From the IMG/VR virus record IMGVR_UViG_3300034101_005442, positions 1-52,128 of that record: a DNA stretch of 52,128 bases; one strand, 5' to 3'. Shown in pieces: positions 35,862-52,128 of this stretch. Position numbers and translations under genes: made by a program. The notes beneath the pieces are model-generated. The model was not told where the DNA came from and ran no database searches. It was given only the letters and a program-made list of their open reading frames with translations. This DNA comes from a virus. Taxonomy: Duplodnaviria > Caudoviricetes. Within the stretch, counting starts at the first letter, position 1; every line of letters begins with the position of its first letter.

Positions 35862-35898
35862 GCTTTTACTCTTATTAACTAAGATAAATATAGTAATC

Positions 35899-36064: not shown

Positions 36065-36076
36065 ATTTAAAATCTA

Positions 36077-37633
36077 TTAACATGGGAATAATACGACATA
36101 AACAGTGTCTCTTCTCGGAGTAAAAGTAGATATTCCAAAACTTCCTAAGGTTGGTCCAGGATACCAATACAAATCAGTATATTTCCAGTAACCTTCGTAC
36201 TGAATTTCGTATCTTAAATTGTATGATAACTTATTAAATATAAATGATTGTGCTACCCATTGTCTTACATCTGAAGATGTGCTATCGTTAAAGTTTCTAA
36301 TTTTGATTAATGCATTGTATGCTAGATTACTTGTTAGATAACTAATACCATCTATAGTTGGAGTGGCGTAAAGATCATATGAGTTCCTCATATATAATTC
36401 AAACCTATTATATTGTAATGTTTTAGGATTCGAAGGCATGCCAAAGACTGGAAAGTGAAAAGGCGTGTTATAATAATTCACATTCTTAGAATCACATAAG
36501 GTATCTATATCAATAGGCACAGATTTTTTATAGCTTGTATAATTCCTGGTTGGCAATTGTGATATGTGAACAAATGGAGTAAACAAATAATTACAATAAA
36601 TGGGTGGAGGAGCTGATGGGGTGAGAGTTGGAGTTACTGTTGGAGTTGGAGTTCGAGTTGGAGTTCGAGTTGGGGTCGGAGTTCGAGTCGGAGTTCGAGT
36701 TGGGGTTTGAGTTCGAGTTGGAGTTCGAGTTGGGGTTACTGTTGATGTGATAGTTGGTGTTGGAGTAACTGTTGGAGTTATAGTTAGAGTTGGGGTTATA
36801 CTTGGAGTAATACTAATTGTGGGAGTAACAGAAGCTGTTGGCGTTGGAGAAGCTCCTGGAGATTTTGTTACTGTTGGTGTTGGCGTAGCGGTTGGAGTTG
36901 CTGTTGATGTTGGCGTAGCGGTTGGAGTTGCTGTTGATGTTGGCGTAGCGGTTGGAGTTGCTGTTGATGTTGGAGTAGCGGTTGGAGTTGCTGTTGATGT
37001 TGGAGTAGCGGCTGGGGTTGATGTTGATGTTGCAGTTAATGTTGGGGTAACTGTTGAAGTAACCGTAATAGTTGGCGTGGGCGTTGGAGTATGAGTGATA
37101 GTTTGCGTTGGAGTTGGTGTTGGAGAAGGAACAATACATCTGATACTACACAAATGCACAGACAGATCGCAAGTATTTAAATCATGGTCCACAGTTAATT
37201 TAATCTTTCTGGGAATCATTATGGGATTGAATGGAGTATCTAATTCATCAATATCGGCGGGTCTTACGTGGGCATTTGTGATGCTAAATGGTGTTGATCC
37301 GCAAGCATTTACAATAGCATCTGAATCATATTCTGTAATAATGTCACACGGAACATCGTCTAATGGCGGATCAGGATCTGGTACGGCACAACATGAATAA
37401 AGTCTAAATTCTATTTTTGATGTTTCATTGTCAAAAGATAATTCTGTTTCTGTTTCTAAATTAAATATATATTCAGTATCTATCCAATCAGTTATAACAT
37501 TATTTGATAAATCATAAAATTTAGTTTGCAAAACTAAGCACTTAAGTAAATCAGAGATAGTTAATTTTAAGAAGAGCGTATTGTTTTCAATACGATGATC
37601 TAGGATATATGATATTGTACATTGTGTAGCCAT
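36077..37633 (-). CDS. Modular protein: domain E, very long Pro/Thr linker, C-terminal domain
   Basis: 518 aa with about 175 aa of PT repeats. Confidence 0.8.
   Translation of the reverse strand: MATQCTISYILDHRIENNTLFLKLTISDLLKCLVLQTKFYDLSNNVITDWIDTEYIFNLETETELSFDNETSKIEFRLYSCCAVPDPDPPLDDVPCDIITEYDSDAIVNACGSTPFSITNAHVRPADIDELDTPFNPIMIPRKIKLTVDHDLNTCDLSVHLCSIRCIVPSPTPTPTQTITHTPTPTPTITVTSTVTPTLTATSTSTPAATPTSTATPTATPTSTATPTATPTSTATPTATPTSTATPTATPTPTVTKSPGASPTPTASVTPTISITPSITPTLTITPTVTPTPTITSTVTPTRTPTRTQTPTRTPTRTPTPTRTPTRTPTPTVTPTLTPSAPPPIYCNYLFTPFVHISQLPTRNYTSYKKSVPIDIDTLCDSKNVNYYNTPFHFPVFGMPSNPKTLQYNRFELYMRNSYDLYATPTIDGISYLTSNLAYNALIKIRNFNDSTSSDVRQWVAQSFIFNKLSYNLRYEIQYEGYWKYTDLYWYPGPTLGSFGISTFTPRRDTVYVVLFPC
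36647..36735. repeat. 12-bp tandem repeat encoding TRTP
   Basis: GGAGTTCGAGTT-type units inside the 36077..37633 gene. Confidence 0.8.
36878..37027. repeat. 30-bp tandem repeat, about 5 copies, encoding STATPTATPT
   Basis: TGTTGG(C/A)GTAGCGGTTGGAGTTGCTGTTGA units. Confidence 0.9.
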
Positions 37634-37658
37634 TTTATTTCTTAATCTTCTTTATATT

Positions 37659-38426
37659 TTATGAAACATATGAAAAATTATTGCAACAATTTACTATCCT
37701 AATAAATTCCGTATTTGACATTTCTCCATTAATAATTACATTTTCCCAAAACGTCCAATCATTATAAGAGTGTCTCCATCGTATGGGAACACGATATCTT
37801 ATATGAATATATGAATTATTTTTAATTCCTAAAGTAGGATATAAGAATATCTCAAAATAGTCATCGTTTACATGGTAAGAAAATGTTCCAAGAACAACTT
37901 GAGAATTTGTGCTACTTAATAATTGTGCTCCTTGTGAAGCTGACCAATTTAAAACATATTCTCCAGTATAGTCTATAGGAATACATTCTACACAATCATT
38001 ATTGTTTGATGCTTCTACCACAGATAGTGGATTTTGCATAGGAAAGGATGTTGTGTTATTAATAGTACTATTAGTCCAAGATGTATTTCCATTAATAAAA
38101 ACTGTTGATACCTTCTGATTACATAATGGATATACTATAGTATTAGGATATCCAGAATTAAATTTACCTGTGTTTATATTAAATTTAAATTCTCTAATAG
38201 CTCTTGGTGAATGATCGATAGTAATGTTATTAATATTATTATTTAATTTATTCTGTTGCTCATCTATAATAAAAGTGCCAGAATCTTTAATAATATTATG
38301 GCCATACTTAATATTATTTTGATTTATATGAGCTTCATCTTTTTTTACTGATTGGAATTTATTAAAACTAGGAGAGCTTTGTATATTTTGTGGCTTATCT
38401 ATAATACTATTATGATAAATATACAT
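37659..38426 (-). CDS. Domain A protein with a short C-terminal domain
   Basis: NIKYG..ITID..P.AIREFKFNI..F.SGYP..Y.LCNQKVSTVF.NGNT matches domain A. Confidence 0.75.
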   Translation of the reverse strand: MYIYHNSIIDKPQNIQSSPSFNKFQSVKKDEAHINQNNIKYGHNIIKDSGTFIIDEQQNKLNNNINNITIDHSPRAIREFKFNINTGKFNSGYPNTIVYPLCNQKVSTVFINGNTSWTNSTINNTTSFPMQNPLSVVEASNNNDCVECIPIDYTGEYVLNWSASQGAQLLSSTNSQVVLGTFSYHVNDDYFEIFLYPTLGIKNNSYIHIRYRVPIRWRHSYNDWTFWENVIINGEMSNTEFIRIVNCCNNFSYVS

Positions 38427-38441
38427 AGATACTCCGAAAAT

Positions 38442-39695
38442 TTATTCTGGATTGTTTGTTGTTGATGTTGTATTAGCTATACTAATTGTACCAGCTTCTC
38501 TTGATCCTGGAGACATTTCTTCATAACCAATATCTTTTAAACAACCTATAGATAGATTAGTAATAATTTTACCAACACCAAAATTTTTAGTCATAATTTC
38601 ATTTATTATTCCGTTATACGATTCTCTAGCATAGACTGCATATCCTAGTTCTGGACTTCCTGTTCCTCTAATCTCTTCTGGAGTATAATTATTTTCCAAA
38701 AAATTATATAAATTTTTACCAGAACCTGTTTTTTCTACTGGTACATATTTTCTTAGTGCTGTATATAGATTACTAGCTTTATTATTTGCTATATTATTAT
38801 AGCCTTTGACTGCTTCTGGAAATTTGGTATTTGTTAATACTGGTAGGGCTGGTATATTAAAGCCACCAATATTATTACTTATGAGAACATGTGTTTTACT
38901 TAATAAACCTATACCTAAAACATATCCAAGTTCGTGTGTGAAAATATTAGTCCAATCATTTTGTGTTAAAAAAGAAACACTATGGTACTGAATATTTGTT
39001 TGTAAATTAAATTCAGTCATAAAAAACTTATTAATTGGCGTTGTTGAGTATGACACGCCCTTATGAGTACTACTATTAACTATATTATTATATGGTACTG
39101 TGGATGTTTTTGGATTAGGAGCAGATTGATCAAATGTTGAATAATTCATTAGTCTGCATCCAAGATATCCAGGATTATCACTAATAAATTTTGCTGGATA
39201 TTTCAACAAAGAGTTCCATCTATTAGCAGCAGCGATTAAAGCATTTCTTCTTGTTGTATCAGTAATAAGACTAAAAGTTGAAGTATTAAATAGTGGAATT
39301 CTATCTATTACTGTTAGTGTTGCTGAATTACTATAAAGCAGTGTTTCAAATAAATTAACGTTAAGTCCATAATTTCTAGTTTGATATCTAATTACGCAAC
39401 GATATTCTCTATTATTTTTATTTAATGCTGCATTAATAGTGAAAGTATCTGAATAAACACTAAATCTATTTGCTCCACCCCATGTGCTCGATATTGCTGT
39501 ATTTTTGGTAATAATTCTATTTGCAGATTGCCAGGATCCTCCTGGAATTTTTACTTCCCAATTATATGTTATTCTATTGTCATATACTGATGGTCCTATA
39601 TTCGGATCTCCATCCTGACTTACTATAACAGTGAAAGAAACTGAAGTTCCGTCTCTTTTGGTTATGGATGTTGGATGTGTTAATATTGTTGCCAT
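38442..39695 (-). CDS. Ig-like domain plus degenerate leishmanolysin-like metalloprotease (probable pseudo-enzyme)
   Basis: Ig pattern P.S.T..G.SV.F.V..Y.W..YRC..SATL.V; HELGYVLGIG in place of HExxH; EIMT Met-turn. Confidence 0.7.
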   Translation of the reverse strand: MATILTHPTSITKRDGTSVSFTVIVSQDGDPNIGPSVYDNRITYNWEVKIPGGSWQSANRIITKNTAISSTWGGANRFSVYSDTFTINAALNKNNREYRCVIRYQTRNYGLNVNLFETLLYSNSATLTVIDRIPLFNTSTFSLITDTTRRNALIAAANRWNSLLKYPAKFISDNPGYLGCRLMNYSTFDQSAPNPKTSTVPYNNIVNSSTHKGVSYSTTPINKFFMTEFNLQTNIQYHSVSFLTQNDWTNIFTHELGYVLGIGLLSKTHVLISNNIGGFNIPALPVLTNTKFPEAVKGYNNIANNKASNLYTALRKYVPVEKTGSGKNLYNFLENNYTPEEIRGTGSPELGYAVYARESYNGIINEIMTKNFGVGKIITNLSIGCLKDIGYEEMSPGSREAGTISIANTTSTTNNPE

Positions 39696-39721
39696 AGTTT
39701 AATTACCCCTAGTTTTTGTAA

Positions 39722-40018
39722 TTATGGTATCTCAGTAATAGTAATAGGATTAGTATAAGAATATGGACTTGTTAATGTTGGAGTTGGCACAGGAGGTGGA
39801 CATTCGTGAATGGGTCCGTTATTATCTAGCGAGAAATTAATTAGATCTTTGTTTGTATTTCGTGATCCGTATCTAATACTATCGTTTATTTTGTTTATGC
39901 CTCCTCTATTTGCTTCTGTTTTTTTAGAAGGAACAGGATATCCACAAGTCCAAAATCGTGAAGGATTACTAGGATTACTAGTGGTTATACCATAAGAATA
40001 TGTTGGTCTATATATCAT
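39722..40018 (-). CDS. Hypothetical protein, paralogue of 47970..48296
   Basis: Shared Y.PTYS, E.N.GGI..I..I..G.R..N and ITI(T/S)E motifs. Confidence 0.65.
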   Translation of the reverse strand: MIYRPTYSYGITTSNPSNPSRFWTCGYPVPSKKTEANRGGINKINDSIRYGSRNTNKDLINFSLDNNGPIHECPPPVPTPTLTSPYSYTNPITITEIP

Positions 40019-40419
40019 GGTCTTGCTACTCCTGGTACTGGTCTGGTTGATGGTACTGTTGGATTTTTAGATGGACATAATACTCCAACAACTACTTTAA
40101 TTGGACCTTTTGCTCCATCTATAGCTTTTCTTCCTTCACTTCCTGGTTTAAGTATATTATCTATAGCTTTTTTATAAACAGGAGCAGCTTGTTCAGGTGG
40201 AATGCCATTTGGGAATTTTCTTTCAAGGTCTTTTATTAATTTATCCAAGGCCGTACTTTCATAAAGCACCTTATCTCCTTGCATAACTCTTATAACTCTG
40301 TCTTTATCTTTTCCTCCTGTAGGAGGATCTTTACAATTATTGTAGTCATTTTCATTTTGTCCAGCAGCATTTTCTATAACATTATTTGGAATATCATTAC
40401 AATTATCAGGTATTGGCAT
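40015..40419 (-). CDS. Hypothetical protein, paralogue of 48293..48685
   Basis: Shared DY..C, R.I.V...DK..Y, IKV.....C..K and terminal PG..RP. Confidence 0.7.
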   Translation of the reverse strand: MPIPDNCNDIPNNVIENAAGQNENDYNNCKDPPTGGKDKDRVIRVMQGDKVLYESTALDKLIKDLERKFPNGIPPEQAAPVYKKAIDNILKPGSEGRKAIDGAKGPIKVVVGVLCPSKNPTVPSTRPVPGVARP

Positions 40420-40424
40420 ATTGA

Positions 40425-41192
40425 TTACTCCTTAATAAATGTATTTAAATATAGTTTATATGCTATTCCAACATCAAAATTATCTACTCCTAATGCTCTA
40501 TTATTTGCTCTGGAATAATTTACTCCAAAAGCTAATTCGTCAGGATAAGTAAAATTACTTAAATATTTATCTTGTTGATCTAGCTGATTAAGAACATTTT
40601 TATCTATATCGTTTCGGTCATAATAAATTCTATTATTATTGCAATAATAAATATTAGTTGGTGGATACTCTGTGGAACTTAGTTCCCATTGATCCAAAGG
40701 ATCTGGCTCATTAGAACAAGAAGGAAGTAAACGGATACGTCCACTAACTGGGCCATCTTGAACATATCCTGGTAATGCAGAAGCGTCTGAATACCAATAC
40801 CATTGTCCTAATAATGTGTCATAGTCTCCTGTAAATCCTGGGGGAAATAAAGATTCGTAGGAGATATTGAAATCCGGAACATATTCAATAATAAAATTGC
40901 TTGCATATAAAGTTGTATATTGGTTAGGTGAACTATTTGGAATTAGTTGTCTAATAGACCATTGTACCGACATTGTTTGTTCGTTATCGAAACTCAATAA
41001 CTCCAACCAAGCAGTATTTTCTACATCTCTCCAAATTGTTGTTTTAATATTTGGTAAAGTTATTGGGTCGTTGAATTGAAGTAGTGGAGTAAATGTAAAA
41101 TTAGTATTATCTCCATTAATATCTAAAAAATTACATCCATATAATACAGGTGGTGGGCCTGAGAATGGACTTTGCGGTTTAAAAATAGCCAT
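40425..41192 (-). CDS. Two-domain protein: domain D (shared with 29138..31252) and domain C (shared with 48701..48976)
   Basis: YGCN..G..FTF..SD..PGY..D.P.SG.I.L..CS; then N..YY.R..QL..K..SNF.YP..FG.NY.R. Confidence 0.75.
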   Translation of the reverse strand: MAIFKPQSPFSGPPPVLYGCNFLDINGDNTNFTFTPLLQFNDPITLPNIKTTIWRDVENTAWLELLSFDNEQTMSVQWSIRQLIPNSSPNQYTTLYASNFIIEYVPDFNISYESLFPPGFTGDYDTLLGQWYWYSDASALPGYVQDGPVSGRIRLLPSCSNEPDPLDQWELSSTEYPPTNIYYCNNNRIYYDRNDIDKNVLNQLDQQDKYLSNFTYPDELAFGVNYSRANNRALGVDNFDVGIAYKLYLNTFIKE

Positions 41193-41226
41193 AATAAAAT
41201 TTCCCTTTAAGGTGTGTCTTTATATC

Positions 41227-41234
41227 TATACACT
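41227..41234 (-). promoter_or_regulatory. Candidate late promoter motif AGTGTATA
   Basis: 37 nt upstream of 41192; intergenic. Confidence 0.6.
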
Positions 41235-41258
41235 AGCGTTTAAGAATCTGTATAATTC

Positions 41259-41585
41259 TTAATTATTTGGCTGTTTCCATGGATTTGCTATGTGTATATT
41301 AGATTGAGATACTAATAAGTTACCAAATTTATCTTCAGAAAGAGTATTATTATCATTTGAGGAACGAGATAAATTACTTGATAAGATTTTACTTTCATTC
41401 AAAATTCTGTCATTACTAAAATGTAATGGAGAATATTTGGATTTAATTTTAAAATTATCAATAGTTGGTAAAGCTAAATTAAAATTATAACTATATTTAT
41501 TGTTTACTGTTATATTATTATCAAAAGATACTATTGGAGTGTCATACTGAGTGCTATTTTGATTACTGATATTATATATTGGCAT
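41259..41585 (-). CDS. Hypothetical Asn/Ser-rich protein
   Basis: 108 aa with GAGGA RBS; fills the gap in the operon. Confidence 0.6.
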   Translation of the reverse strand: MPIYNISNQNSTQYDTPIVSFDNNITVNNKYSYNFNLALPTIDNFKIKSKYSPLHFSNDRILNESKILSSNLSRSSNDNNTLSEDKFGNLLVSQSNIHIANPWKQPNN

Positions 41586-41606
41586 TAGATTTTCCTCTTC
41601 GGTGAT

Positions 41607-44600
41607 TTAACATTCTTCACAATAATCAATACATTCTCCTTCACAGCAATACTTAGCTGTTTCAGGATCTATATAAAGTTCTGGTTGAGATAGGTCTGAT
41701 GGAAGATAATAACATTTACGGTTAAGCCAAGACCAGTATGGGCCACTGTAGCCAAAAGCTTCCAAAGTATTTAATGGAGGACAACACACAGGCTCTAGCC
41801 ACACGCCAGCAGCAGTCTCACTTGCTGACTCTTCAGTCCTACAACCATTTTCAAAGAAAGTTCCGTCTGGACAACATCCTGCTTCTTTTCCTCCTTCTGG
41901 ATAATATGTATATCCTTGTTCGCAACCGCATTGTCCTGGCGGGGTAATGAAGTTAGGTCCACCAGAATCAAATACTGTGTATCCATCAGGACATGTTTGA
42001 CAAGGACTTGAAGCTGCTATTCCCCATCCTGTTTCTGGTGGAGGATTTGCACATGATTCGCAAGGATGACAACAATCACAACTTGGCCATCCCTGTGGCA
42101 TCGTTAGTCTGACTCCATCTGGAGAATAGCCCCTTTGCCAATATGCTCTGTCTCCTTCTACTCCTCCGCAAGCATCATATGTTGCGTTCCATTCACAAAA
42201 ATCAAAACCCTCAGCACATTCTTTTCTTTCTGTCAAAGCTGGTCCATTCATAAACTGATCGAGTTGAGCTTTTAGAAGAGCTAATGAAGCGGCTAACCCT
42301 GCTAACTGAGCTTGTATACCTTGTGCTTCACCTCTTAGTGGTTCTACTTCTGCAACTAGTTTTTGTATTTCTTTATCTAGCATACGCGAGTTCCAATCAG
42401 CTTGATCTCTTAGTTCTTTATTATTAAGCCAAGCCTGATAATCTTCATAAATATTGTCTAAATTTTGGAGATTTTCATCAAATGGATGTTTCTCTAACCA
42501 TTCATCCCAAGATAATATAATTTTGTTTCCATCTTCATCATAAGTTGGAAATACAATTACAACTCTAGGACCATCGTATCCATCATCATGCTTGTCAATA
42601 TGATTTACCCAACCATAATCAGGAGGAAAAGCTCCAGGAATTTGAGGATGTTCGCCTTCAATACGCTGCATTGCCTCTGTAGCTTGTTTCATTGTATTTA
42701 ATAGTGTATCTTTTTCTGCATTTTTACCAAAAATCTGACCATCAAGAGATAATATGGCTGGAAGTAAGCCGGATAACAATCTATAAAGTCTGGCCATTGT
42801 TAGTACAATTGTAGCAATTGCTATGGCTAGATCTAATGCCTGTTGTCTTGACACTAACACATTCCAACATCCACATTCAAACGTAAATAAATCGTTCATA
42901 TTATATCCGCCGCGGATATAGAAAGGATTCTCACAAGGATACTCTAGAAGATTAGGGCTTAATGGTAATGTAAAATCATTTTTTATATTTCTAGCCTCAG
43001 GATCCCACCAACCTTGAGGAGGATTAATAGCAACACAAGCTTCAAAATCGTTATTATCAGAACTAGATAATGAAGATGATATTATTATTGGTGTTGGATA
43101 AACAAAACGGTTTAAGTATGATGTTGATACATATGAACTTAAATCGACTCTGGATCCCATAGCATCAACAAAATATATCTGATCAGAATTAGAATTAATA
43201 AGATTAATATAATGTTGTCCAAACTGAGATACAAAACCAAATCCTGAAGGAGCAAAACCAAATGCTGCAGAAATTCCCCCTTGAAGAATAACATCTGAGA
43301 CATAATCTGTTTGAGCATTATAGTTTGAATTTGTAAATATACCACTAGCACTAGAATTATAATAATGAGTTAGATTACGAAAAATATTAGGACAATTTAT
43401 TCTATCATTTGATAACGAAAAGGGTACTGATGTTAAGGATCCATCATCTGCTAAACTAACAATCTCATTACCTTGCGAGAAATTAGATGGTTTACTAATA
43501 TTAAATCCGATATTTCCACTTGTTGATGCTGTGCTAGAAAAACTAAAGCTATCCTCTGTTTGTTGGATATTTATTGATCCTTCGGATAATACTTTTGCGA
43601 ATGTTATTGTAACATCTGGAGATATTATAACATTAATATTTTCACCTGTGGGCACCATTCTGAAATTATCATAAACTGTTTCTGTTCCTAAAATTGAACA
43701 ATTTGTATTTCTTCTAAAGTTTGTTGCTATGCCTGAATCGTAGTATGAAACCCAATCATTTAACGATCCTGACTGACATCCTGTTATATAAAATTTGTCT
43801 TTGAACAAACCACTATTGGTAACAAGATGTCCAACGTTCCATGATCCTGTTGGAACACAACTATTTTCACTCCATGTATATGATAATTCTCTGTCTGTAG
43901 AATATTCTTGACAGCTTTCTTCTGTTCCGTCAAAAATTGCTCCGTCAGAAATATAGCAACAACCTGATCCTAAAAATAATGAATCTCCATATAATCCGAT
44001 ACTACTAAATCCAACAGAAGCAGCTGAAACATATTGACCTTCAAATATTCCATCAAATTCATACTCATTTTCTAATAATTGTCCTGGTCCATCTTGAATT
44101 GCTGGTGCTGGTCCTGTTCTTTTTGGGGCAAATGCAACTCCATTAAAACGAAAAGCGTATGAAGTTACAATATCTTCGTTACTTATGCGTGGATTTGGGG
44201 CTATTGTTATAACAGTGCTTGAGCCAATTTCAGAATTAATACTTCTGAAAGATAAAATAGTTGGAGGAGACGGAGGAAGTTGATTATCTAGTGATAAGGT
44301 TCCTGTGGTTGTTGTTGATCCAAGAATAATAGTATCTGACAAAGAAATTATTTGACCAGGAACAACCTGTTGAGATGAAACTTGTCCTTGGTCATTTATA
44401 AATAATGCTTTATCAAATCCTAGTTTTGATGGAACACTAAAATTAAAAGAAGATAGTTGGCTATTTGATGATAGGAATTTATCCTTTATGCTATCTTTGG
44501 AATAAGCAACTATGGGTTGTAAATTAGTATTAAAATAATTATTTAAGTTTATGGTATTATTTTGTATAGATACATTATTTCCAGATATAATTGATCCATT

Positions 44601-45164
44601 AGATGCTAGTAATGCATCAACTGCAACAGATTCGCTAAAAGGTACACATGTGTTACAAAAAATATTACAACTATTACATGCTTCGGTAAAGCTATTGAAA
44701 AATTTTTGTGATGATGAATTAATTTTAGTATTATTTAATAATATATCATTATACCATATTACTACTGGATTTGTTGAATCGGTAGTATCACAGTTATTAT
44801 TTTGTAAAAATTGTATAAGTTGTTGTTCTTCGGGATACAAAGATACACAATCTCTTATGGAATTTAGATTAGGATCCTGAGAAGACGATATAACACAAAA
44901 TTGAGTTTTTCCAGTATCATCTGTTTCCAATGAAATATTTTCACATGGTATTATTTGTTGTATTCTGTTTTGATTAGCTGCCCACCATTCGCTAGAAATG
45001 TTATGATTGATTTTTTCTGGAGCTACAGGAATACCTAATGAAACATTTTCTCCATTACAACTGATAGTTGCTGGAATAGATTTATATACTATCCAATAAC
45101 ATGGATTTTCATTATTCTTGATTTTAGAAAATGGATTATTAAAATTTGTATTAAATACTGCCAT
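41607..45164 (-). CDS. Large Cys-rich modular protein with a hydrophobic helix and coiled coil
   Basis: 1185 aa; ALDLAIAIATIVLTMARLYRLLSGLLPAIL segment, coiled coil LDKEIQKL..LKAQLDQ, Cys-dense C-terminal ~200 aa. Confidence 0.75.
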   Translation of the reverse strand: MAVFNTNFNNPFSKIKNNENPCYWIVYKSIPATISCNGENVSLGIPVAPEKINHNISSEWWAANQNRIQQIIPCENISLETDDTGKTQFCVISSSQDPNLNSIRDCVSLYPEEQQLIQFLQNNNCDTTDSTNPVVIWYNDILLNNTKINSSSQKFFNSFTEACNSCNIFCNTCVPFSESVAVDALLASNGSIISGNNVSIQNNTINLNNYFNTNLQPIVAYSKDSIKDKFLSSNSQLSSFNFSVPSKLGFDKALFINDQGQVSSQQVVPGQIISLSDTIILGSTTTTGTLSLDNQLPPSPPTILSFRSINSEIGSSTVITIAPNPRISNEDIVTSYAFRFNGVAFAPKRTGPAPAIQDGPGQLLENEYEFDGIFEGQYVSAASVGFSSIGLYGDSLFLGSGCCYISDGAIFDGTEESCQEYSTDRELSYTWSENSCVPTGSWNVGHLVTNSGLFKDKFYITGCQSGSLNDWVSYYDSGIATNFRRNTNCSILGTETVYDNFRMVPTGENINVIISPDVTITFAKVLSEGSINIQQTEDSFSFSSTASTSGNIGFNISKPSNFSQGNEIVSLADDGSLTSVPFSLSNDRINCPNIFRNLTHYYNSSASGIFTNSNYNAQTDYVSDVILQGGISAAFGFAPSGFGFVSQFGQHYINLINSNSDQIYFVDAMGSRVDLSSYVSTSYLNRFVYPTPIIISSSLSSSDNNDFEACVAINPPQGWWDPEARNIKNDFTLPLSPNLLEYPCENPFYIRGGYNMNDLFTFECGCWNVLVSRQQALDLAIAIATIVLTMARLYRLLSGLLPAILSLDGQIFGKNAEKDTLLNTMKQATEAMQRIEGEHPQIPGAFPPDYGWVNHIDKHDDGYDGPRVVIVFPTYDEDGNKIILSWDEWLEKHPFDENLQNLDNIYEDYQAWLNNKELRDQADWNSRMLDKEIQKLVAEVEPLRGEAQGIQAQLAGLAASLALLKAQLDQFMNGPALTERKECAEGFDFCEWNATYDACGGVEGDRAYWQRGYSPDGVRLTMPQGWPSCDCCHPCESCANPPPETGWGIAASSPCQTCPDGYTVFDSGGPNFITPPGQCGCEQGYTYYPEGGKEAGCCPDGTFFENGCRTEESASETAAGVWLEPVCCPPLNTLEAFGYSGPYWSWLNRKCYYLPSDLSQPELYIDPETAKYCCEGECIDYCEEC

Positions 45165-45180
45165 TAGTCTAGCTTCTTTC

Positions 45181-46278
45181 TTAGGGTACGTTAAATATTG
45201 TTGGATTAATATTATAAGAACGAGTTGGTGTTGGCGTTGATAATGATCTTGTTTTTGTTGGCGTTGGTGTTGATGTGGATACTGATTTTGTCTTGGTGGG
45301 AGTAGGAGTTACAGATGGTGCTCGTGTTTTTGTTGGAGTTGGTGTTGGAGCTCTTGTGGAGGTTACACTAGGAGTTGGAGTAGGATTACAACAATTTTCA
45401 GCAGCTTTTTTAGCTTGAGTACAATTTATTACTGTTGCTGATGTTATTCTCATACTAGTATAAGGATTGCCCATACCAGGATTAAAAGGAATACTGTTAC
45501 TAATTGGAACTCTGAGAATCCATGAAACTTGAGTACTATTATTAGCGTATGAATCCTTAAAAGTATATTCAATATAATCTTGTCCATTAATAGTAACACA
45601 TTTTCCACCAACTAAGATTATAGCATGTTTAGTTTTTAATAGATTAGTACAATTTTCTTTTATTTTTGGTCTTACCCATTTTGGTGGCATAGTATAAATA
45701 TACGGAGGAGAACCAGTTATTGTTCCGTCTTGTACACTCTTAAGCCAATCTTCAAAGTTTGGTGGAAAAACAGCAGTATCCAAATCGCTCATTATGGGGC
45801 CAGTAGAGCATAAACTATCAACTAAATTTTTTTGATTTCTGTATGATGTTGAATTAACTTTATAGTTTATAGTAACATAACATTGACGAGGATCACAAGG
45901 ATCACTATATGTTTTTCCTGGACATTTAACGGGAACTTTAAGTCCGGATCGTCCTGAATTTGCAAAAAACGCAAAAGTTTTAAATGCATTTGTTGCTCTG
46001 TTGATAAAATCAGTTTTTTCTGTACTAGATCCTTTTCCGTATTTACAATCTGCTAATGTATTAATATATGTTATTCCATTAGCGGGCATTGGCATACTAT
46101 TGATCTTTGTTTGATTACACGCTATAATAGCATTATAATCTATATTAATAGCACAAGAAGCTGCTAATGATTGCAATAACGTATTGGTCATGCAAGTTAA
46201 TTGATCAACACCTTCCTTTTTTTGGTTAATATCTAATGGTATCTGATGTAAACAGTTTTTAATATTATTACATGGCAT
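45181..46278 (-). CDS. Papain-like (C1) cysteine protease with Pro/Thr tail
   Basis: DQLTCMTN (candidate catalytic Cys), GPIM, HAIILVGG (His) and YTFKDSY (compare papain HAV.xVG..KNSW). Confidence 0.6.
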   Translation of the reverse strand: MPCNNIKNCLHQIPLDINQKKEGVDQLTCMTNTLLQSLAASCAINIDYNAIIACNQTKINSMPMPANGITYINTLADCKYGKGSSTEKTDFINRATNAFKTFAFFANSGRSGLKVPVKCPGKTYSDPCDPRQCYVTINYKVNSTSYRNQKNLVDSLCSTGPIMSDLDTAVFPPNFEDWLKSVQDGTITGSPPYIYTMPPKWVRPKIKENCTNLLKTKHAIILVGGKCVTINGQDYIEYTFKDSYANNSTQVSWILRVPISNSIPFNPGMGNPYTSMRITSATVINCTQAKKAAENCCNPTPTPSVTSTRAPTPTPTKTRAPSVTPTPTKTKSVSTSTPTPTKTRSLSTPTPTRSYNINPTIFNVP

Positions 46279-46571: not shown

Positions 46572-46579
46572 AGTACACC
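46572..46579 (-). promoter_or_regulatory. Candidate late promoter motif GGTGTACT
   Basis: 43 nt upstream of 46531. Confidence 0.55.
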
Positions 46580-47967
46580 TATGATTTCTTTTTGTTTTTT
46601 GATTTTGATATGTGATCACAGGTATACATATTATGCTTAGTATTTTGTATTACAAATCCATTTTCAGGATATCTATAAGTTGTTGTTAATGGACTTTCTG
46701 ATGCTCCAGGAATTATTTCTTCATATCCAAAATGGGTTAACATTTTAATACTTAATGGAGTAATAACTTGTTGTATGTCTGGATCAAAATATGGAACCAT
46801 AAGATCATTACCTATTCCTGGTAATATCTGACTTTTAGGACACATTCCGTCGGCAGGAATATCAGAACATGCTCCAGGTCTCCATGGATATTTACATTCA
46901 CAAGGTTTACTATATTGTATAGGGAAAGAATACCACGACCAGTGTGCTCCAATTACTGTTTGTAATGGAACTGGTCTTAATGAATATGCTGGATCATAGG
47001 ATATTCTACCAGCTGACTCATAGATACTACCCATTCCAGGATAATAATCAGTATTTAAAGAACTAGCGTCATACCATTCATATGCTCCAATTTTAATATA
47101 AGGTTCTGTATTTACTGTATTAGTATCAGTATACTCAGGATCCCAATAGAATCCTATTCCTAAACCATGACCTAGCTCATGTAGCATCACTCCTTCCCAT
47201 TCGGCTTGTGTATAATCATTTTGATAATGAGTATTAATATATAAGTCTATGGATGTTGTATTCCATCTTAAATAAGGAGCAGACGAACTTAATTGTTTAT
47301 GAGCTGATATTCCACAAGCAGCAATTGCTCCATGTAAATCTGTTCCTTGTAAATTATCAATATAAATTGCATTAATTGTGATACCTTTCCAGTTTGATCC
47401 TAACTCAGATCGTATGCTAGCAATTACGCTATTATTCATTCGTAGGAATTTTGACCATCTATTACATGCGTTGACAAGAGGAGTTAAATATGGTGCTGGA
47501 ACTCCTGTTCCTATAGGTACTCCGTTTTTATTTAGTCTGGGTACTGATGAAAAAGAATCAGTATCAAATAGTTTCACATTATTTTCTACTAGCCATGTTA
47601 CTTCAGAAGAGGTAGAAGTCCAATTATAAACATATGATATTCCTGTAGATTGTTCAGTATAGTATGTTGTTAATTCCAATCGACATCTAAATTTTCTTCC
47701 ACTTTTGGCTAGTGTTGATTTGCTGGTAATGAAAGTATCTGTTAAAGAAGCTCTTTTACCCGCATAATCTTTAGGATTTAAATTTCTAGTATCTTTAGTT
47801 ATGTCTCTAACAATTGTCCATGATGATGATCCTGGAAGTTGTCGTTCCCATAGGTATCGAGCTGTCCAAGTTGTTCCTAGAATTCGTCCTGTGATCGTAG
47901 AAACAAATGTTGCTTTAATACCTTCTTTAAGAGTTACAGATGATGGTAAAACAGTATTATTTATCAT
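46579..47967 (-). CDS. Ig-like domain plus leishmanolysin-like (metzincin) zinc metalloprotease
   Basis: HELGHGLGIG (HExxH), downstream GAHW (third ligand), DLMVPY Met-turn, IT.LSI..L..GY. Confidence 0.8.
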   Translation of the reverse strand: MINNTVLPSSVTLKEGIKATFVSTITGRILGTTWTARYLWERQLPGSSSWTIVRDITKDTRNLNPKDYAGKRASLTDTFITSKSTLAKSGRKFRCRLELTTYYTEQSTGISYVYNWTSTSSEVTWLVENNVKLFDTDSFSSVPRLNKNGVPIGTGVPAPYLTPLVNACNRWSKFLRMNNSVIASIRSELGSNWKGITINAIYIDNLQGTDLHGAIAACGISAHKQLSSSAPYLRWNTTSIDLYINTHYQNDYTQAEWEGVMLHELGHGLGIGFYWDPEYTDTNTVNTEPYIKIGAYEWYDASSLNTDYYPGMGSIYESAGRISYDPAYSLRPVPLQTVIGAHWSWYSFPIQYSKPCECKYPWRPGACSDIPADGMCPKSQILPGIGNDLMVPYFDPDIQQVITPLSIKMLTHFGYEEIIPGASESPLTTTYRYPENGFVIQNTKHNMYTCDHISKSKNKKKS

Positions 47968-48700: not shown

Positions 48701-48976
48701 TTATTCAGAAGCGGCGTCTTCTGATATTTGATTAATTATGGGAAATGATGGATTATCAGAATTAAAAGCTTGATTGTATAAGAAATATGTGGTGTTGGCC
48801 GAATAATTTTCATTTCTTAACTTTTGATTATCTAGTCTGTCATAATTGATGCCAAATTTAATATCATTAGGATAATGAAAGTTTGAGAAATTTTTACTAT
48901 CTTCTGAAAGTTGGCTAGGTAAATTTTGGCCAAATCTATTGTAGTAAACTTTATTGTTATATGTAAAATATATCAT
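48701..48976 (-). CDS. Domain C protein, first gene of the leftward island
   Basis: Start re-called to ATG at 48976 (MIYFTYNNKVYY) from the AAGGAA RBS, the upstream GTGTAT motif and where homology to 40425..41192 begins. Confidence 0.7.
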   Translation of the reverse strand: MIYFTYNNKVYYNRFGQNLPSQLSEDSKNFSNFHYPNDIKFGINYDRLDNQKLRNENYSANTTYFLYNQAFNSDNPSFPIINQISEDAASE

Positions 48977-49002
48977 TGTTATATGGTTCCTTAATATCAT
49001 AG

Positions 49003-49010
49003 TATACACA
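49003..49010 (-). promoter_or_regulatory. Candidate late promoter motif TGTGTATA
   Basis: 29 nt upstream of the re-called start at 48976. Confidence 0.55.
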
Positions 49011-49232
49011 ATTATAAATGAAAATGTGTTGCTGTTAGGCTCTTGTCTCTTGGGAATAGAAACACAAGATCTAGAAACATGATAAATAATGGGGTAAATA
49101 GGGGAGTTTAGGTGATACATTTTGATTTATTGAGTGCTTATTGTGTTTGGATGTCCTTGGGGTTTTGAGAAAAATCTGGAAATGATCGATAAAAACAGAA
49201 AAACCCCCTCTTATGTTTTACGGTTATTCTAC

Positions 49233-49410
49233 CCCGCAAATTTGACGTAAAGCCTTACGAGATAATGACTTACAACGAGGGAGCATAGCAAATGGTGTGC
49301 CAAAGAATAATATATTTTATGGTATGGTATTTGCTCATGAAAAAAATCTCAAAAAAAACATTTGTACACTATTGACGCCTAAAGAATCTTTGGTATAATG
49401 TCGATATAAG
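49233..49410 (+). repeat. Regulatory cassette copy 1 (left-truncated)
   Basis: One 11-7-11 palindrome (49246-49274); sigma-54 sites at 49287-49302 (minus strand, TGGCACACCATTTGCT) and 49320-49335 (plus); TTGACG 49372 / TATAAT 49394; TAAA-N16-GTCGATAT. Confidence 0.85.
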
Positions 49411-49445
49411 AAGTAAGAGAGAAAAAGAAAAAAAAGGAAAAGAAC

Positions 49446-49613
49446 ATGACATACTTCATTCAGATTTTCGATGCTTGGGATTGTGAGTTGGATTTCATCG
49501 GCCCGTTCAACACTGAGAACGAAGCACATGAGGCCGGTTGGAGCAAGTGGGAAGGTGACGATAACGCCTATGGTAGCCGAATCATCAAAAGGCTTCCCGC
49601 TTCGACTCACTGA
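49446..49613 (+). CDS. 55-aa acidic protein (not in ORF track), paralogue of 50214..50378
   Basis: MTYFIQIFDAWDCELDFIGPFNTENEAHEAGWSKWEGDDNAYGSRIIKRLPASTH; AAGGAA RBS; downstream of the cassette promoter. Confidence 0.85.
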   Translation: MTYFIQIFDAWDCELDFIGPFNTENEAHEAGWSKWEGDDNAYGSRIIKRLPASTH

Positions 49614-49624
49614 AAAATATTCTC

Positions 49625-49660
49625 TAAGGGCTTGACGAACGATTGCCGATAACGTACACT
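49625..49660 (+). promoter_or_regulatory. Overlapping sigma-70 and sigma-28-like promoter
   Basis: TTGACG(49632)-N17-TACACT(49655), with TAAG(49625)-N16-GCCGATAA(49645). Confidence 0.7.
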
Positions 49661-49690
49661 AGAATCATCACAAGGAAAAAGGAAAGAATC

Positions 49691-49933
49691 ATGAGCAACG
49701 ATTTTATCTACGACATGAGCGAAATCAACGAAGAGAACATGTTCAAGGCTTGGGAAGAAATGGTAGCCGAAGATGGTAGCATCTGGGAAACGGGATACGA
49801 TGATGATACCGATTACATTCCGGGCCTTGACGATGGCGAAGGATACGACCCGATCATGGGCGATGGCGAAGGATTCGATGAAACGGACGATGGATGGCTG
49901 GACGATTTCCAGGGCGAAGAGGATTTTGCCTAG
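49691..49933 (+). CDS. 80-aa extremely acidic protein (candidate DNA mimic)
   Basis: Start re-called to ATG 49691 after AAGGAA; 29 D/E against 1 K and 0 R; internal DGEG(Y/F)D repeat. Confidence 0.8.
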   Translation: MSNDFIYDMSEINEENMFKAWEEMVAEDGSIWETGYDDDTDYIPGLDDGEGYDPIMGDGEGFDETDDGWLDDFQGEEDFA

Positions 49934-49942
49934 GGGATACAT

Positions 49943-50183
49943 CCCCCACTAGGGGGAAAGGCTTGACGTAAACCCTTGCTACATAAGCACTTACGTCAAA
50001 TTTTCGGCCGAAAAATCGTCGTAAACCCTTATGCCACAACGACTTACATCAAATGCCCACAGCAAATGCTATGCCGAAAATAATATATTCTATGGTATGA
50101 TATTTGCTGAACATAACCTTACGATATTGTAAGGAAACTTTTTTGTTGACGATTCAAGATACCATGGTATAATGTCGATATAA
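49943..50183 (+). repeat. Regulatory cassette copy 2 (complete)
   Basis: CCCCCACTAGGGGG; palindromes at 49967 and 50020; TTTTCGGCCGAAAA; sigma-54 sites 50061-50076 (minus) and 50093-50108 (plus); CCTTAC-N6-GTAAGG 50117-50134; TTGACG 50146 / TATAAT 50168; TCAA-N16-GTCGATAT. Confidence 0.9.
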
Positions 50184-50213
50184 AGAGAAAAGGAAAAGAA
50201 AAAGGAAAATAAA

Positions 50214-50378
50214 ATGACATACTTTGCTCAAATCGTAGACGCTTGGGATTGTGAACTAGACTTCCTTGGCCCATTCTATACTGAGGAACAGGCGACCGCC
50301 GCCGCTTTCGACAAGTGGGACGGTGAGGATGGATGTAGGGTAAATATCATCAAAAGACTTCCGGCTTTTTCTCACTGA
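50214..50378 (+). CDS. 54-aa acidic protein (not in ORF track), paralogue of 49446..49613
   Basis: MTYFAQIVDAWDCELDFLGPFYTEEQATAAAFDKWDGEDGCRVNIIKRLPAFSH; many synonymous differences from the paralogue show it is coding. Confidence 0.85.
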   Translation: MTYFAQIVDAWDCELDFLGPFYTEEQATAAAFDKWDGEDGCRVNIIKRLPAFSH

Positions 50379-50398
50379 AAAAATATTTTCTAGTGGGG

Positions 50399-50426
50399 TT
50401 GACGTAGGATTGCCGATAAGTATACT
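50399..50426 (+). promoter_or_regulatory. Sigma-70 promoter with embedded GCCGATAA
   Basis: TTGACG(50399)-N16-TATACT(50421); GCCGATAA at 50412; homologous to the 49625 promoter, but the sigma-28 -35 element is poor. Confidence 0.65.
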
Positions 50427-50443
50427 AGGGAAAAGGAAAAGAA

Positions 50444-50638
50444 ATGACACTGAATACAGAAATCTCGACGAGTTATGATGGTAAGCGGTATACGGGCTTG
50501 GTTGTGGAAATCAAGATGGTACAGAATCGTGAGTTGATCACGATCATGATTGAAGATGATTCGCGGAATGATGGCATAGGGTATCGTAGCCTTTATGCCG
50601 ATAAGATGAGCGAAACATCCGAAAACCTTTTCGCATAA
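50444..50638 (+). CDS. 64-aa small beta-barrel-like (SH3/Sm-like) protein, paralogue of 51209..51406
   Basis: Shared Y..G..(Y/F)TG..V.....L.TI...GYRS.Y.DK; AAGGAA RBS. The fold is inference. Confidence 0.75.
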   Translation: MTLNTEISTSYDGKRYTGLVVEIKMVQNRELITIMIEDDSRNDGIGYRSLYADKMSETSENLFA

Positions 50639-50646
50639 GGAAAAAA

Positions 50647-50967
50647 ATGAATAGTTTTGCAAGATTAAATCGTATTGGAATGGAATCGAATGCTACTAAA
50701 AATAAGGTAAGATACTTGCGTGAAAAATATAATCTTGGATATGATATGCAACCCAAGGAAAAAACAATGTCCGTTTCCGAAATGATTTGCAAACTAGAAT
50801 CCCATGGATTGATCGTGCAGCGGTTGGAGCACGATAATGGTACGCTACACGTTGACGGCTATCATCCTCCCCATTGTAAGGGGCTGCCCGATTGGCTGTA
50901 TGATTGCCCCGGTTGGGGGGTATCGTCATGCGGGGCTTCTAGGGTTTTCATGTTCAAGGTGGGCTAA
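50647..50967 (+). CDS. Hypothetical protein (possible second start at MSVSEM, 50767)
   Basis: AAGGAAAA RBS precedes both ATG 50647 and the in-frame ATG 50767. Confidence 0.6.
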   Translation: MNSFARLNRIGMESNATKNKVRYLREKYNLGYDMQPKEKTMSVSEMICKLESHGLIVQRLEHDNGTLHVDGYHPPHCKGLPDWLYDCPGWGVSSCGASRVFMFKVG

Positions 50968-51188
50968 CCCCCCACTAGGGGTACACACTCGACGTAAACC
51001 CTTGCTGTATAAGCACTTACGTCAAATTTTCGGCCGCAAAATCGTCGTAAACCCTTATGGCATAACGACTTACGACGAATCGACATAGCAAACGATATGC
51101 CAAAGAATAATATATTCTCTGAAAAAAATAAAAAAAATAAAAGATTTTGCTTGCAACCTAAAGATGAGCCTGTATAATGCCGATATAG
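50968..51188 (+). repeat. Regulatory cassette copy 3 (plus-strand sigma-54 arm replaced by A-tracts)
   Basis: Palindromes at 50993 and 51046; sigma-54 site 51087-51102 (minus, TGGCATATCGTTTGCT); TTGCAA 51151 / TATAAT 51173; TAAA(51159)-N16-GCCGATAT(51179). Confidence 0.9.
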
Positions 51189-51208
51189 AAAGAACAGGAG
51201 AAAGAAAA

Positions 51209-51406
51209 ATGGAAATGAAAATCGGAAACGTTGCCAAGGTCGAATATGCTACGGGTGAGAAGTTTACGGGTGAAATCGTAAAGGTTCGCACCATGTCCGA
51301 CAATCGTATTCTGTTCACGATCCACGATGAAACCGTAGGGTATCGTTCGATGTATACCGACAAGTGTGTGTCTCTGGAAACGCTGGAACTACAGCCCCTT
51401 GATTGA
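51209..51406 (+). CDS. 65-aa small beta-barrel-like protein, paralogue of 50444..50638
   Basis: Start re-called to ATG 51209 after AGGAG; FTGEIV..LFTI..GYRSMYTDK. Confidence 0.8.
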   Translation: MEMKIGNVAKVEYATGEKFTGEIVKVRTMSDNRILFTIHDETVGYRSMYTDKCVSLETLELQPLD

Positions 51407-51411
51407 GGGGG

Positions 51412-51440
51412 TTGTGCCTATAAAAAAAGTTTGCTACACT
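51412..51440 (+). promoter_or_regulatory. Sigma-70-like promoter
   Basis: TTGTGC-N17-TACACT upstream of ATG 51473. Confidence 0.5.
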
Positions 51441-51472
51441 ACATCATCATCCCAACCCATAGGAAAACAACA

Positions 51473-51799
51473 ATGACCACTAGCCCTATCCTTCGTGAGT
51501 TTCGCCGCGGCATCATCAACTGGTTTGAGGGTATCGCAATCCCTCACCAGCCTAGCGTTGCCGATGGTGTGTATACGCCGATTCGCAGCGAAAAGGTGAT
51601 GAAGTTCAATCGTAAGGCTCTCCGCCAAATCGGAAAGGCTAAGGCTGAAAAGGTTGATCCCCGCTATAGTGGGGGTGATGATCGTATGATCGTAAAGGTT
51701 GGAAAGCCCGGCTCGGCTGAACGTAAGGCAGCATTAGCAGAACAGTATGCCGCTATTCTCGCCTGCGGAGAGGAAGTATCCCCCTTTTCGGAGGGGTAA
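51473..51799 (+). CDS. 108-aa basic hypothetical protein
   Basis: Start re-called to ATG 51473 after AGGAAAA; ends just before cassette copy 4. Confidence 0.75.
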   Translation: MTTSPILREFRRGIINWFEGIAIPHQPSVADGVYTPIRSEKVMKFNRKALRQIGKAKAEKVDPRYSGGDDRMIVKVGKPGSAERKAALAEQYAAILACGEEVSPFSEG

Positions 51800-51808
51800 G
51801 GGTATATA

Positions 51809-52050
51809 CCCCCATTAGTGGCACACACTTGACGTAAACCCTTGCTGCATAAGCACTTACGTCAAATTTTCGGCCGCAAAATCGTCGTAAACCCTTACTG
51901 TATAAGCACTTACGTCGAATGACTATAGCAAACGATATGCCGAAGAATAACTTATTCTATGGTATAATATTTGCTCTAGGAAACCTTACGATATTGTAAG
52001 TTTTTTTTTGCTTGCAATCTAAAGAATGGTCTGTATAATGTCGATAGATA
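51809..52050 (+). repeat. Regulatory cassette copy 4 (complete)
   Basis: Palindromes at 51833 and 51886; sigma-54 sites 51927-51942 (minus) and 51960-51975 (plus); CCTTACGATATTGTAAG at 51984; TTGCAA 52012 / TATAAT 52034; TAAA-N16-GTCGATAG. Confidence 0.9.
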
Positions 52051-52072
52051 AGAAAGAAAGAGAGAAAGAGAA

Positions 52073-52128
52073 ATGAACAGCCTCGATAAGATTCTGGCAT
52101 CTATGCGGTCTGGCAAGTATGGTAGCGT
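52073..52128 (+). CDS. Hypothetical protein, 5' end (runs off window)
   Basis: MNSLDKILASMRSGKYGS..., following cassette copy 4 and a purine-only leader. Confidence 0.65.
   Translation, partial: MNSLDKILASMRSGKYGS

Follow-up and report, generated by a model that had tools for sequence, protein, structure and literature searches.

T4-type phages carry promoter-early stem-loop (PeSL) cassettes, conserved terminator-promoter units between which homologous exchange shuffles ORFans, as described in two reports (PMC2839356; PMC4122927). Here we analyse a comparable arrangement in the 52,128-bp IMG/VR virus record IMGVR_UViG_3300034101_005442 (referred to as the window, the whole stretch of DNA that was analysed), in which seven 29-bp sites, each formed by two inverted 11-bp arms around a 7-nt spacer and hereafter called dyads, accompany a short array of early genes. 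Six of them form three pairs, or doublets, with a fixed spacing of 53 bp. We tentatively read the doublet as an operator or insulator recognized on duplex DNA. The completeness of the record is estimated at only 34%, so further sites probably lie beyond the window end.

The likeness to PeSLs is one of layout. In both, a repeated composite cassette fills the gap from a stop codon to the next start (modules 2-4 here run stop, doublet, promoter, leader, ATG), and the inverted repeats, which have a G-run/C-run core, precede AT-rich DNA, a sigma-70 promoter close to consensus and a leader for ribosome binding. Both are concentrated in a hyperplastic region of small ORFans, with repeats long and alike enough for gene shuffling. 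The phage studied here is not T4-like, however, its terminase being 26% identical to the best GenBank phage match (the matches are siphoviruses); the cassette thus works like a PeSL without being a member of that group. Its inverted repeats consist of two 29-bp dyads with a fixed 53-bp spacing, whose arms are conserved across very distant phages and show no selection for pairing, whereas PeSL stem-loops vary in sequence between phage pairs and have been shown to terminate transcription (PMC2839356; PMC4122927). The present cassettes also add further palindromes and motifs resembling sigma-54 and sigma-28 promoters.

Another point of comparison is provided by arrays of repressor operators dispersed over a phage genome, such as the stoperators of cluster A mycobacteriophages, which are single asymmetric sites of about 13 bp found in temperate phages with a known repressor. 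Stoperators likewise occur as many copies of one conserved site in short intergenic gaps, in one transcription direction, and are thought to block or control transcription. The sites described here differ in being 29-bp pseudo-dyads arranged in phased pairs, in the early region only, of phages in which no integrase was detected.

Seven sites in a repeated early-gene cassette

A sequence-only reading of the window had listed seven 11-7-11 palindromes with a variable spacer of constant length, and had proposed that they either delimit mobile gene cassettes as recombination sites or bend DNA beside sigma-54 promoters as architectural sites of the integration host factor (IHF) type. The seven sites were found exactly where it had placed them, with the spacers that it had listed, and all lie on the plus strand (Table 1). 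Searching the window with its degenerate pattern, up to 2 mismatches being allowed, gave these 7 matches, every one with 0 mismatches, and 100 dinucleotide-preserving shuffles gave 0. A half-site position weight matrix (PWM) built from relatives and scanned with spacers of 4-10 nt recovered the 7 sites alone over the 52-kb window, solely at spacer 7. The start-to-start distance is exactly 53 bp in all three window pairs, about five helical turns, as the same reading had noted.

Both arms are imperfect copies of a single half-site with the consensus TYGW-CGTAAGTCSTT, and the left arms in the window carry the variant CGTAAACCCTT. The dyad symmetry runs 4 nt further outward on each side, as TTGA/TCAA in the first site of a pair and as TCGT/ACGA in the second. 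The linkers between paired dyads are 24 nt long and centred on CGGCCG.

The dyads are part of a repeated cassette, copies of which are 78-88% identical over 150 nt. From 5' to 3' it comprises the upstream stop codon, a short C5/G5 hairpin, dyad A, the linker, dyad B, AGCAAA-N5-TGCCA, AT-rich DNA, TGGTAT-N5-TTTGCT, a small hairpin with a T-run (modules 2 and 4 only), a sigma-70-type promoter, a purine-rich leader and the start codon. The final stop codon of the upstream operon precedes the start of dyad A by 25-33 nt. Module 1 has the second dyad only and lies in a divergent gap beside the late genes, with no plus-strand gene upstream. The sigma-70-type promoters of the window match 10-11 of 12 consensus positions, each 76-97 nt past the last dyad.

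Table 1. Coordinates of the dyads and of accompanying features in the window
Feature	Position	Strand	Remarks
Single dyad, module 1	49246..49274	+	Equals second site of a pair; half-linker CCCCGCAAATTTGA upstream; divergent gap between - strand late genes and first + strand early promoter
Dyad A, module 2	49967..49995	+	Start 33 nt past stop codon of gene 49691-49933
Linker, module 2, 24 nt	49996..50019	.	Perfect palindrome TTTTCGGCCGAAAA at doublet centre
Dyad B, module 2	50020..50048	+	53 bp from dyad A
Dyad A, module 3	50993..51021	+	25 nt past stop codon of gene 50647-50967
Linker, module 3, 24 nt	51022..51045	.	TTTTCGGCCGCAAAA
Dyad B, module 3	51046..51074	+	
Dyad A, module 4	51833..51861	+	33 nt past stop codon of gene 51473-51799
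Linker, module 4, 24 nt	51862..51885	.	TTTTCGGCCGCAAAA
Dyad B, module 4	51886..51914	+	
Sigma-70-type promoter, module 1	49372..49399	+	TTGACG, 16 nt, TATAAT, with TG
Equivalent sigma-70-type promoters, other modules	50146-50173, 51151-51178, 52012-52039	+	
Terminator-like hairpin, module 2	50117..50144	+	CCTTACGATATTGTAAGG, then T-run; arms reuse CTTACG/GTAAG words
Similar hairpin and T-run, module 4	51984-52009	+	
Sigma-54-like element	49287..49302	-	11/13 consensus, GG-N10-GC; 12 nt past dyad, pointing into dyad
Equivalent - strand element	51087-51102	-	10/13
Weaker - strand equivalents	50061-50076, 51927-51942	-	
Sigma-54-like element	49320..49335	+	10/13; also readable as extended -10; starts 73-74 nt past start of preceding dyad
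Equivalent + strand elements	50093-50108, 51960-51975	+	None in module 3
Early small-gene array served by the cassettes	49446..52128	+	Open reading frames 49446-49613, 49691-49933, 50214-50378, 50444-50638, 50647-50967, 51209-51406, 51473-51799, and 52074 off the window end

Conservation of the doublet in distant relatives

At least 151 loci in IMG/VR matched the exact pattern. We selected for comparison five relatives, G001-G005, which are 93-100% complete and 150-223 kb long; their terminases are 29, 80, 75, 57 and 51% identical to that of the window, and they contain 6, 9, 19, 9 and 9 pattern matches, respectively, at up to 3 mismatches. The matches are confined to the small-gene early region of each genome and clustered within 10-25 kb. 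In G002 (223 kb), which is about 72% identical to the window at the DNA level across structural genes, the PWM finds 34 sites, all at 117.2-138.4 kb and with a spacer of 7 in 34/34 (4-10 tested), including at least 13 pairs exactly 53 bp apart. The region itself is present in public sequencing runs, the 24 listed being all DNA and mostly labelled as lake water.

Pooling all retrieved loci gave 537 unique sites. Among 217 distances between neighbours closer than 120 bp, 150 were exactly 53 bp, in agreement with the pairing noted from the window, and 177 were 52-54 bp. The length of the linker is kept but not its sequence, which ranges from AT-flanked CGGCCG through to GC-rich runs such as GGGCGGGCCGC or GGCCGGCC. 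Doublets in the relatives lie 0-42 nt past stop codons. The paired element is thus conserved in a clade of large uncultured lake phages and marks the boundaries of their early operons. Since the sites stand at the borders of small early operons, the earlier suggestion that they delimit gene blocks holds, and what it had said of their mobility is taken up below. Persistence of the same 22 conserved bases, 7-nt spacer and 53-bp pairing down to 29% terminase identity points to a conserved DNA-binding factor.

Absence of selection for arm pairing

Across the 537 sites, the arm words CGTAA, TT, AA and TTACG are near-invariant, and mirrored arm positions agree no more than independent half-sites would. 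Agreement at arm positions 5 and 6 is in fact lower than expected (0.31 and 0.37 versus 0.46-0.53), positions 5-8 pair in just 31-59% of sites, and not one of the 537 is a perfect palindrome. Orientation by crude votes from open reading frames (ORFs) and promoters over 123 doublets was too noisy, so only genomes of clear gene direction were used where strand mattered, which gave 38 doublets (76 sites). When halves were shuffled among these 76 sites, 10.9 with at least 10/11 matches were expected, and 0 were observed. In the 38 doublets, C never occurs as the first spacer base, nor G as the last. The four half-sites of a doublet also differ in preference, GTCGTT occupying the fourth in 23 of the 38 compared with 3-10 at the other three. 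In many linkers the centre is a perfect palindrome with no loop (CGGCCG, GGCCGGCC), which fits duplex DNA and not a hairpin.

A strand-specific hairpin was considered and rejected. All 15 non-Watson-Crick transition pairs of the window are A.C on the plus strand (G.U on the minus strand), but the bias reverses in G004 and G001; the counts are 66:25 across the window, G002 and G003 and 115:105 overall. Likeness of the minus-strand loops to anticodon loops was likewise discarded, U at position 2 with a purine at position 6 being seen in 7/7 window sites but not in the wider clade. The covariance models of Rfam 15 gave 0 matches at E values up to 1 in 48800-52128. On 20 bacterial loci they detected only transfer RNA (tRNA) and ribosomal RNA genes, with one weak sub-threshold match over a tRNA gene and none on dyads.

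A putative operator or insulator doublet

The paired sites may be an operator or insulator on duplex DNA for a putative dimeric DNA-binding protein, within PeSL-like cassettes, a proposal that we hold tentatively and rate somewhat short of probable. We infer protein binding and a regulatory outcome from an anatomy, conservation, strict geometry and absence of pairing selection that are established. Recognition of the duplex by a dimer is suggested by the invariant words, the fixed 7-nt spacer, the exclusion of C and G beside it, the five-turn pairing over an unconserved linker and the palindromic linker centres. The deep conservation, the confinement to one region and the separate preferences of the four half-sites also favour the proposal. 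So does the link to promoters, a sigma-70-type promoter scoring at least 9.7/12 being found 17-132 nt downstream of the last dyad of a group in 36 of 46 cases. The site of module 1 likewise lies in a divergent promoter gap, in which no upstream gene needs a terminator.

In this proposal, a dimeric sequence-specific protein of phage or host origin would recognize each 29-bp site (37 bp including the flanks) as a pseudo-dyad in double-stranded DNA. With two such sites exactly five turns apart around a GC-core linker, two dimers, possibly joined in a tetramer, would lie on the same face of the helix. Each early operon has one doublet directly past its final gene and ahead of the early promoter that follows. 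Once bound, it could act as a boundary or control element that stops or insulates read-through from the upstream operon, or switches the downstream early promoters, for instance in early-gene shut-off, or both. Homologous exchange of ORFan genes would be a likely side effect of the repeated cassettes.

Several observations weigh against this proposal. No helix-turn-helix regulator, sigma factor or recombinase was found when 190 ORFs of G002 were scanned with Pfam (the structural block and 9 ORFs spanning locus borders were set aside), and the early proteins of the window have no significant family match: the best Pfam hit to the early-array ORFs had an E value of 0.11, all being under the curated cut-offs, and PHROG gave zero matches. 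The 108-aa product of 51473-51799, the most widespread early gene, was rejected as the binder, being absent from 3 of the 5 relatives. The distance from the last dyad to the sigma-70-type promoter varies (17-132 nt), and its periodicity is unconvincing (a resultant of 0.17 at 10.5 bp and peaks at 9.5 and 11.5 bp, from modules that are not independent). Placement right past stop codons is also terminator-like, and single look-alike dyads of bacteria stand at the 3' ends of genes and tRNAs with flank-extended stems and T-runs, like ordinary terminators. Folded as RNA, the doublet reaches -21.5 to -21.9 kcal/mol on the plus strand (z -2.1 to -3.1 versus shuffles) and -27.5 to -42.7 kcal/mol on the minus strand (z -1.8 to -7.3), where A.C mismatches become G.U. 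In the window, TTTT lies 3' of the first site of each pair on the plus strand, 4 nt past the core, and T4-5 follows the second on the minus strand.

Other candidate binders were sought among the proteins common to G001 and G002 (31 of 544 ORFs), which yielded no regulator; two conserved proteins were dropped, with weak Pfam hints and no PDB relative. The probability left by the operator or insulator proposal and the alternatives below goes to functions beyond those considered here.

In large uncultured lake phages, arrays of tiny early genes with a fast turnover take up 10-25 kb and probably serve host takeover or counter-defence. The conservation of the doublet, an unusually rigid cis-element, suggests a DNA-binding factor that would govern early transcription or insulate neighbouring operons of these arrays. 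The dyad element offers a simple sequence tag for the early regions of the clade in metagenomes and, if its binder were found, the doublet could be used as a portable boundary or operator part.

Possible terminators or other transcript stem-loops

The sites are possibly, though on balance not likely, plain transcript stem-loops with no dedicated binder, that is, terminators (perhaps bidirectional) or hairpins that stabilise or process 3' ends, as in the stem-loop half of a PeSL. Their location 25-33 nt past stop codons in the window and 0-42 nt in the relatives would suit this, as would the better folding of doublets than of shuffles as RNA on both strands and the T-runs that AT-type linkers provide after site A on the plus strand and after site B on the minus strand. 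In many relatives, however, the linkers are GC-rich and have no T-run, and a consensus terminator scan flags 0 of the 7 dyads, although it does flag another hairpin with a T-run downstream in module 2. PeSLs share the layout and their stem-loops terminate transcription (PMC2839356), but those stem-loops vary between phage pairs (PMC4122927). A fixed arm sequence, a 7-nt loop and a 53-bp spacing kept down to 29% terminase identity are unlike terminators, and the arms show no excess of complementarity, as the missing perfect palindromes and the poor pairing at arm positions 5-8 attest. The sites are also missing from the other 90% of the genome, where terminators are needed as well, and the site of module 1 has no plus-strand gene upstream.

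Bacterial look-alikes bear on this alternative too. Scanning one genome per prokaryote species gave at least 127 loci in many phyla. Many of these are short contigs of metagenome-assembled genomes (MAGs) with phage-style doublets and are evidently phage. Dyads on real chromosomes are single, and in 6 of 60 loci they lie 2-15 nt past tRNA or transfer-messenger RNA genes. Others follow ORFs or lie between convergent genes (8 of 20 Planctomycetota loci). The flanks often lengthen the stem of such dyads, and T-runs come after it. Such single perfect palindromes may be ordinary terminators that match the pattern in part by chance. The bare skeleton occurred in 58 of 401 unselected Planctomycetota genomes and a reversed control in 17, a modest enrichment. 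Because genomes are rich in hairpins, part of these matches is chance, and we draw no conclusion from them.

The small hairpins of modules 2 and 4 are a separate feature. They lie just 5' of the -35 box, and their arms CCTTAC/GTAAGG reuse the outer words of the dyads. Together with an upstream TGGTATAAT-type box, such a hairpin could define a transcript of about 35-40 nt.

Sigma-54-like elements and a possible link to host alternative sigma factors

Sigma-54 enhancers are paired activator sites located 70-150 bp upstream of a -24/-12 promoter. It is improbable, in our judgement, that the doublets are upstream activating sequences of this kind, recognized by a host sigma-54 activator and serving sigma-54-like promoters just downstream. 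Matches to the sigma-54 consensus TGGCAC-N5-TTGC are nevertheless concentrated beside the doublets in the window, G002 and G003. A -24/-12 element (10/13) follows the sites in 3 of the 4 window modules, all 4 matches of at least 11/13 in the 223-kb genome of G002 fall within its early region, and four perfect 12/13 matches comprise two on the plus strand of G002 and another two in G003. The plus-strand element starts 63-68, 71 or 73-74 nt past the second dyad in 8 modules, which come from three phages, and 53 nt past a lone dyad in a ninth. The dyad centres thus fall at about -75/-128 or -85/-138 relative to the element in some modules, and two phased dyads at such distances are the usual enhancer layout.

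Other observations count against this reading. A search of the five relatives for Sigma54_activat (PF00158) gave nothing beyond a weak generic AAA match in one of them, and no activator gene was found. The elements accompany about a third of the modules and are essentially missing from G004, G005 and G001, which keep the doublets. Their commonest copy is on the minus strand, 12 or 7 nt from a dyad and pointing into it, which is not enhancer geometry. The plus-strand copies of the window can equally be read as extended -10 promoters, the fixed distances may merely reflect common descent of a repeated cassette, and look-alikes in host genomes lie between convergent genes instead of upstream of promoters. 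With respect to the architectural sites beside sigma-54 promoters that had been proposed, the adjacent sigma-54-like motifs are present and the sites do resemble protein-bound DNA; the IHF component is dealt with below. The sigma-54-like elements also form inverted pairs, and with them palindromes of 35-49 bp, which are divergent in the window (49287-49335, 50061-50108, 51087-51102 and 51927-51975) and face to face in G002 and G003 (with examples at 118312-118345 of G002 and at 4503-4537 of locus L159); they may be promoters or another binding site.

In a broader version, which we regard as doubtful, the cassettes would plug the phage into host alternative sigma factors, each combining a sigma-70 promoter, an overlapping element of the sigma-28 (FliA) type and -24/-12 elements of the sigma-54 type, with the doublet as an enhancer for a host activator. 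The sigma-28-like motif TAAA-N16-GYCGATA overlaps 3 of the 4 sigma-70 promoters of the cassettes (49380-49406, 51159-51185 and 52020-52046), with 3 matches against 0.28 expected. The combination of sigma-54 and sigma-28 is typical of flagellar gene hierarchies; if this version were true, it would tie early expression to motile host cells and give a rare instance of early phage genes coupled to alternative sigma factors of the host. A literature word search for sigma-54 or sigma-28 early promoters in phages returned nothing relevant. In another variant, the minus-strand sigma-54-like element could drive a transcript of about 45 nt consisting of the second dyad as a G.U-paired hairpin with a U-tail and a variable 7-nt loop, giving a family of tiny antisense hairpin RNAs.

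GCCGATAA occurs at 49632-49660 and 50399-50426, in the spacer of internal promoters, and in many promoters of relatives, with TAAAG(A/T)TT upstream. It may be that two sigma factors recognize the early promoters.

Recombination and DNA bending as unlikely alternatives

The dif, pdif and att core sites share with the dyads two inverted arms of about 11 bp around a centre of 6-8 bp, and all 7 window sites have the 11-7-11 geometry of a tyrosine-recombinase core. We nevertheless think it very unlikely that they are core sites at which such an enzyme (host Xer-type or an unseen phage protein) moves or shuffles the gene cassettes that they delimit. The early region is indeed hyperplastic: of its 8 genes in the window, 3 have a homologue in G002 and 1 in G003, against about 72% DNA identity over the structural genes. 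Public contigs do join different modules of the region. Yet Phage_integrase (PF00589) gave 0 matches in the window and 0 in the five relatives, while the control search was positive in 14/14 known genomes. Pfam detected RecA, RuvB and endonuclease VII, but no site-specific recombinase, among the 190 ORFs of G002. Moreover, the sites are doublets in one orientation 53 bp apart instead of single sites flanking cassettes.

Breakpoints show no clear focus on the spacer either. In contigs from 4 public DNA runs, which break and rejoin within the repeated cassettes, the 7-nt spacer was touched by 2 of 15 joints, both ambiguous: at one, 49 letters fit either side, and at the other the strand switches within a palindrome. 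The remaining joints lie in arms, linker, promoter or leader, where repeats or homologous exchange would put them. A joint from 51848 back by 840 to 51009, which resembles a circle or tandem junction, was not counted because 49 letters fit both sides and it derives from a metagenome assembly graph. Genes 49691 and 52074 have homologues that are neighbours in G002, whereas in the window a 2.1-kb block separates the two, extending from a doublet to a gene start and not between two sites. The right edge of this insertion is about 160 nt from the nearest site. Cassettes that are 78-88% identical over 150 nt suffice for homologous exchange, and the pattern is the one reported for the PeSL cassettes of T4-type phages (PMC2839356; PMC4122927). 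In strain comparisons, the closest match to the locus was 85% over 208 nt. The sites therefore delimit gene blocks, as had been proposed, but the proposal that these are cassettes mobilized by recombination was not supported.

Bending sites of the IHF/HU type are hardly credible: the pairs are phased five turns apart and AT-rich DNA separates doublets from promoters, but the IHF-like consensus earlier seen in the arms is not borne out (WATCAANNNNTTR has 0 matches in 49200-52128, and 5 elsewhere in the window versus 8.6 expected by chance), Bac_DNA_binding (PF00216) is found in 0/5 relatives, the conserved words CGTAA and TTACG differ from the IHF consensus, and IHF sites are far less specific than a 29-bp dyad with 22 conserved positions.

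Other copies of the skeleton and the setting of the array

Some bacterial genomes contain the dyad skeleton in other contexts. There are 24 dispersed copies in the Lachnospiraceae MAG G009, where the skeleton forms the tip of a long hairpin (about 110 nt), and 24 dispersed copies in the Phycisphaerae MAG G010. In G015:C1, a Verrucomicrobiae chromosome, six identical copies of an insertion sequence have a dyad about 80 nt upstream of the DDE transposase gene. A repetitive extragenic palindromic (REP) element with its REP-associated tyrosine transposase was not supported: 0 of 6 Y1_Tnp loci in 4 dyad-carrying bacterial genomes are flanked by dyads (one dyad lies 1.3 kb from a gene fragment), and Y1_Tnp was not found among the 190 ORFs of G002. 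Six 11-mers searched in the literature matched only unrelated eukaryotic primers or sequences, and blastn of 49200-52128 against GenBank phages gave zero matches.

Bases 1-49120 of the window have genes on the minus strand only, among them those for the terminase and tail-fibre-like proteins, and a G+C content of 26-42%, mostly about 32%. At 49.2 kb the gene direction switches to plus and the G+C content rises to 41-44%. The change in composition and strand is abrupt, at about 49100, the final 1 kb of minus-strand late genes having 29% G+C versus the 41-44% of the plus-strand early array. The early region of G002 shows a similar rise (41.6% versus about 33%). In the same genome (loci L167-L177), the genes include a split DnaE-type polymerase, RecA and others interrupted by intein/LAGLIDADG sequences, together with a volactin-like actin, a SET-domain protein, an Mtd_N tropism-determinant domain and a DUF1501 protein (339 bits). 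DUF1501 is typical of Planctomycetota and would be a weak clue to the host.

Tiny paralogues occur in the early array of the window. ORFs 49446-49613 and 50214-50378 (54-55 aa) are 72% identical at the DNA level, and 50444-50638 and 51209-51406 (64-65 aa) have GYRS(L/M)Y(A/T)DK in common; these pairs suggest cassette duplication. On the minus strand, five proteins of 365-704 aa encoded at 26604-46278 share a C-terminal stretch matching phrog_15511 and are probably a family of exchangeable fibre or receptor-binding tips. A zinc-protease-like motif, HELGHGLG, occurs in the 462-aa protein encoded at 46579-47967.

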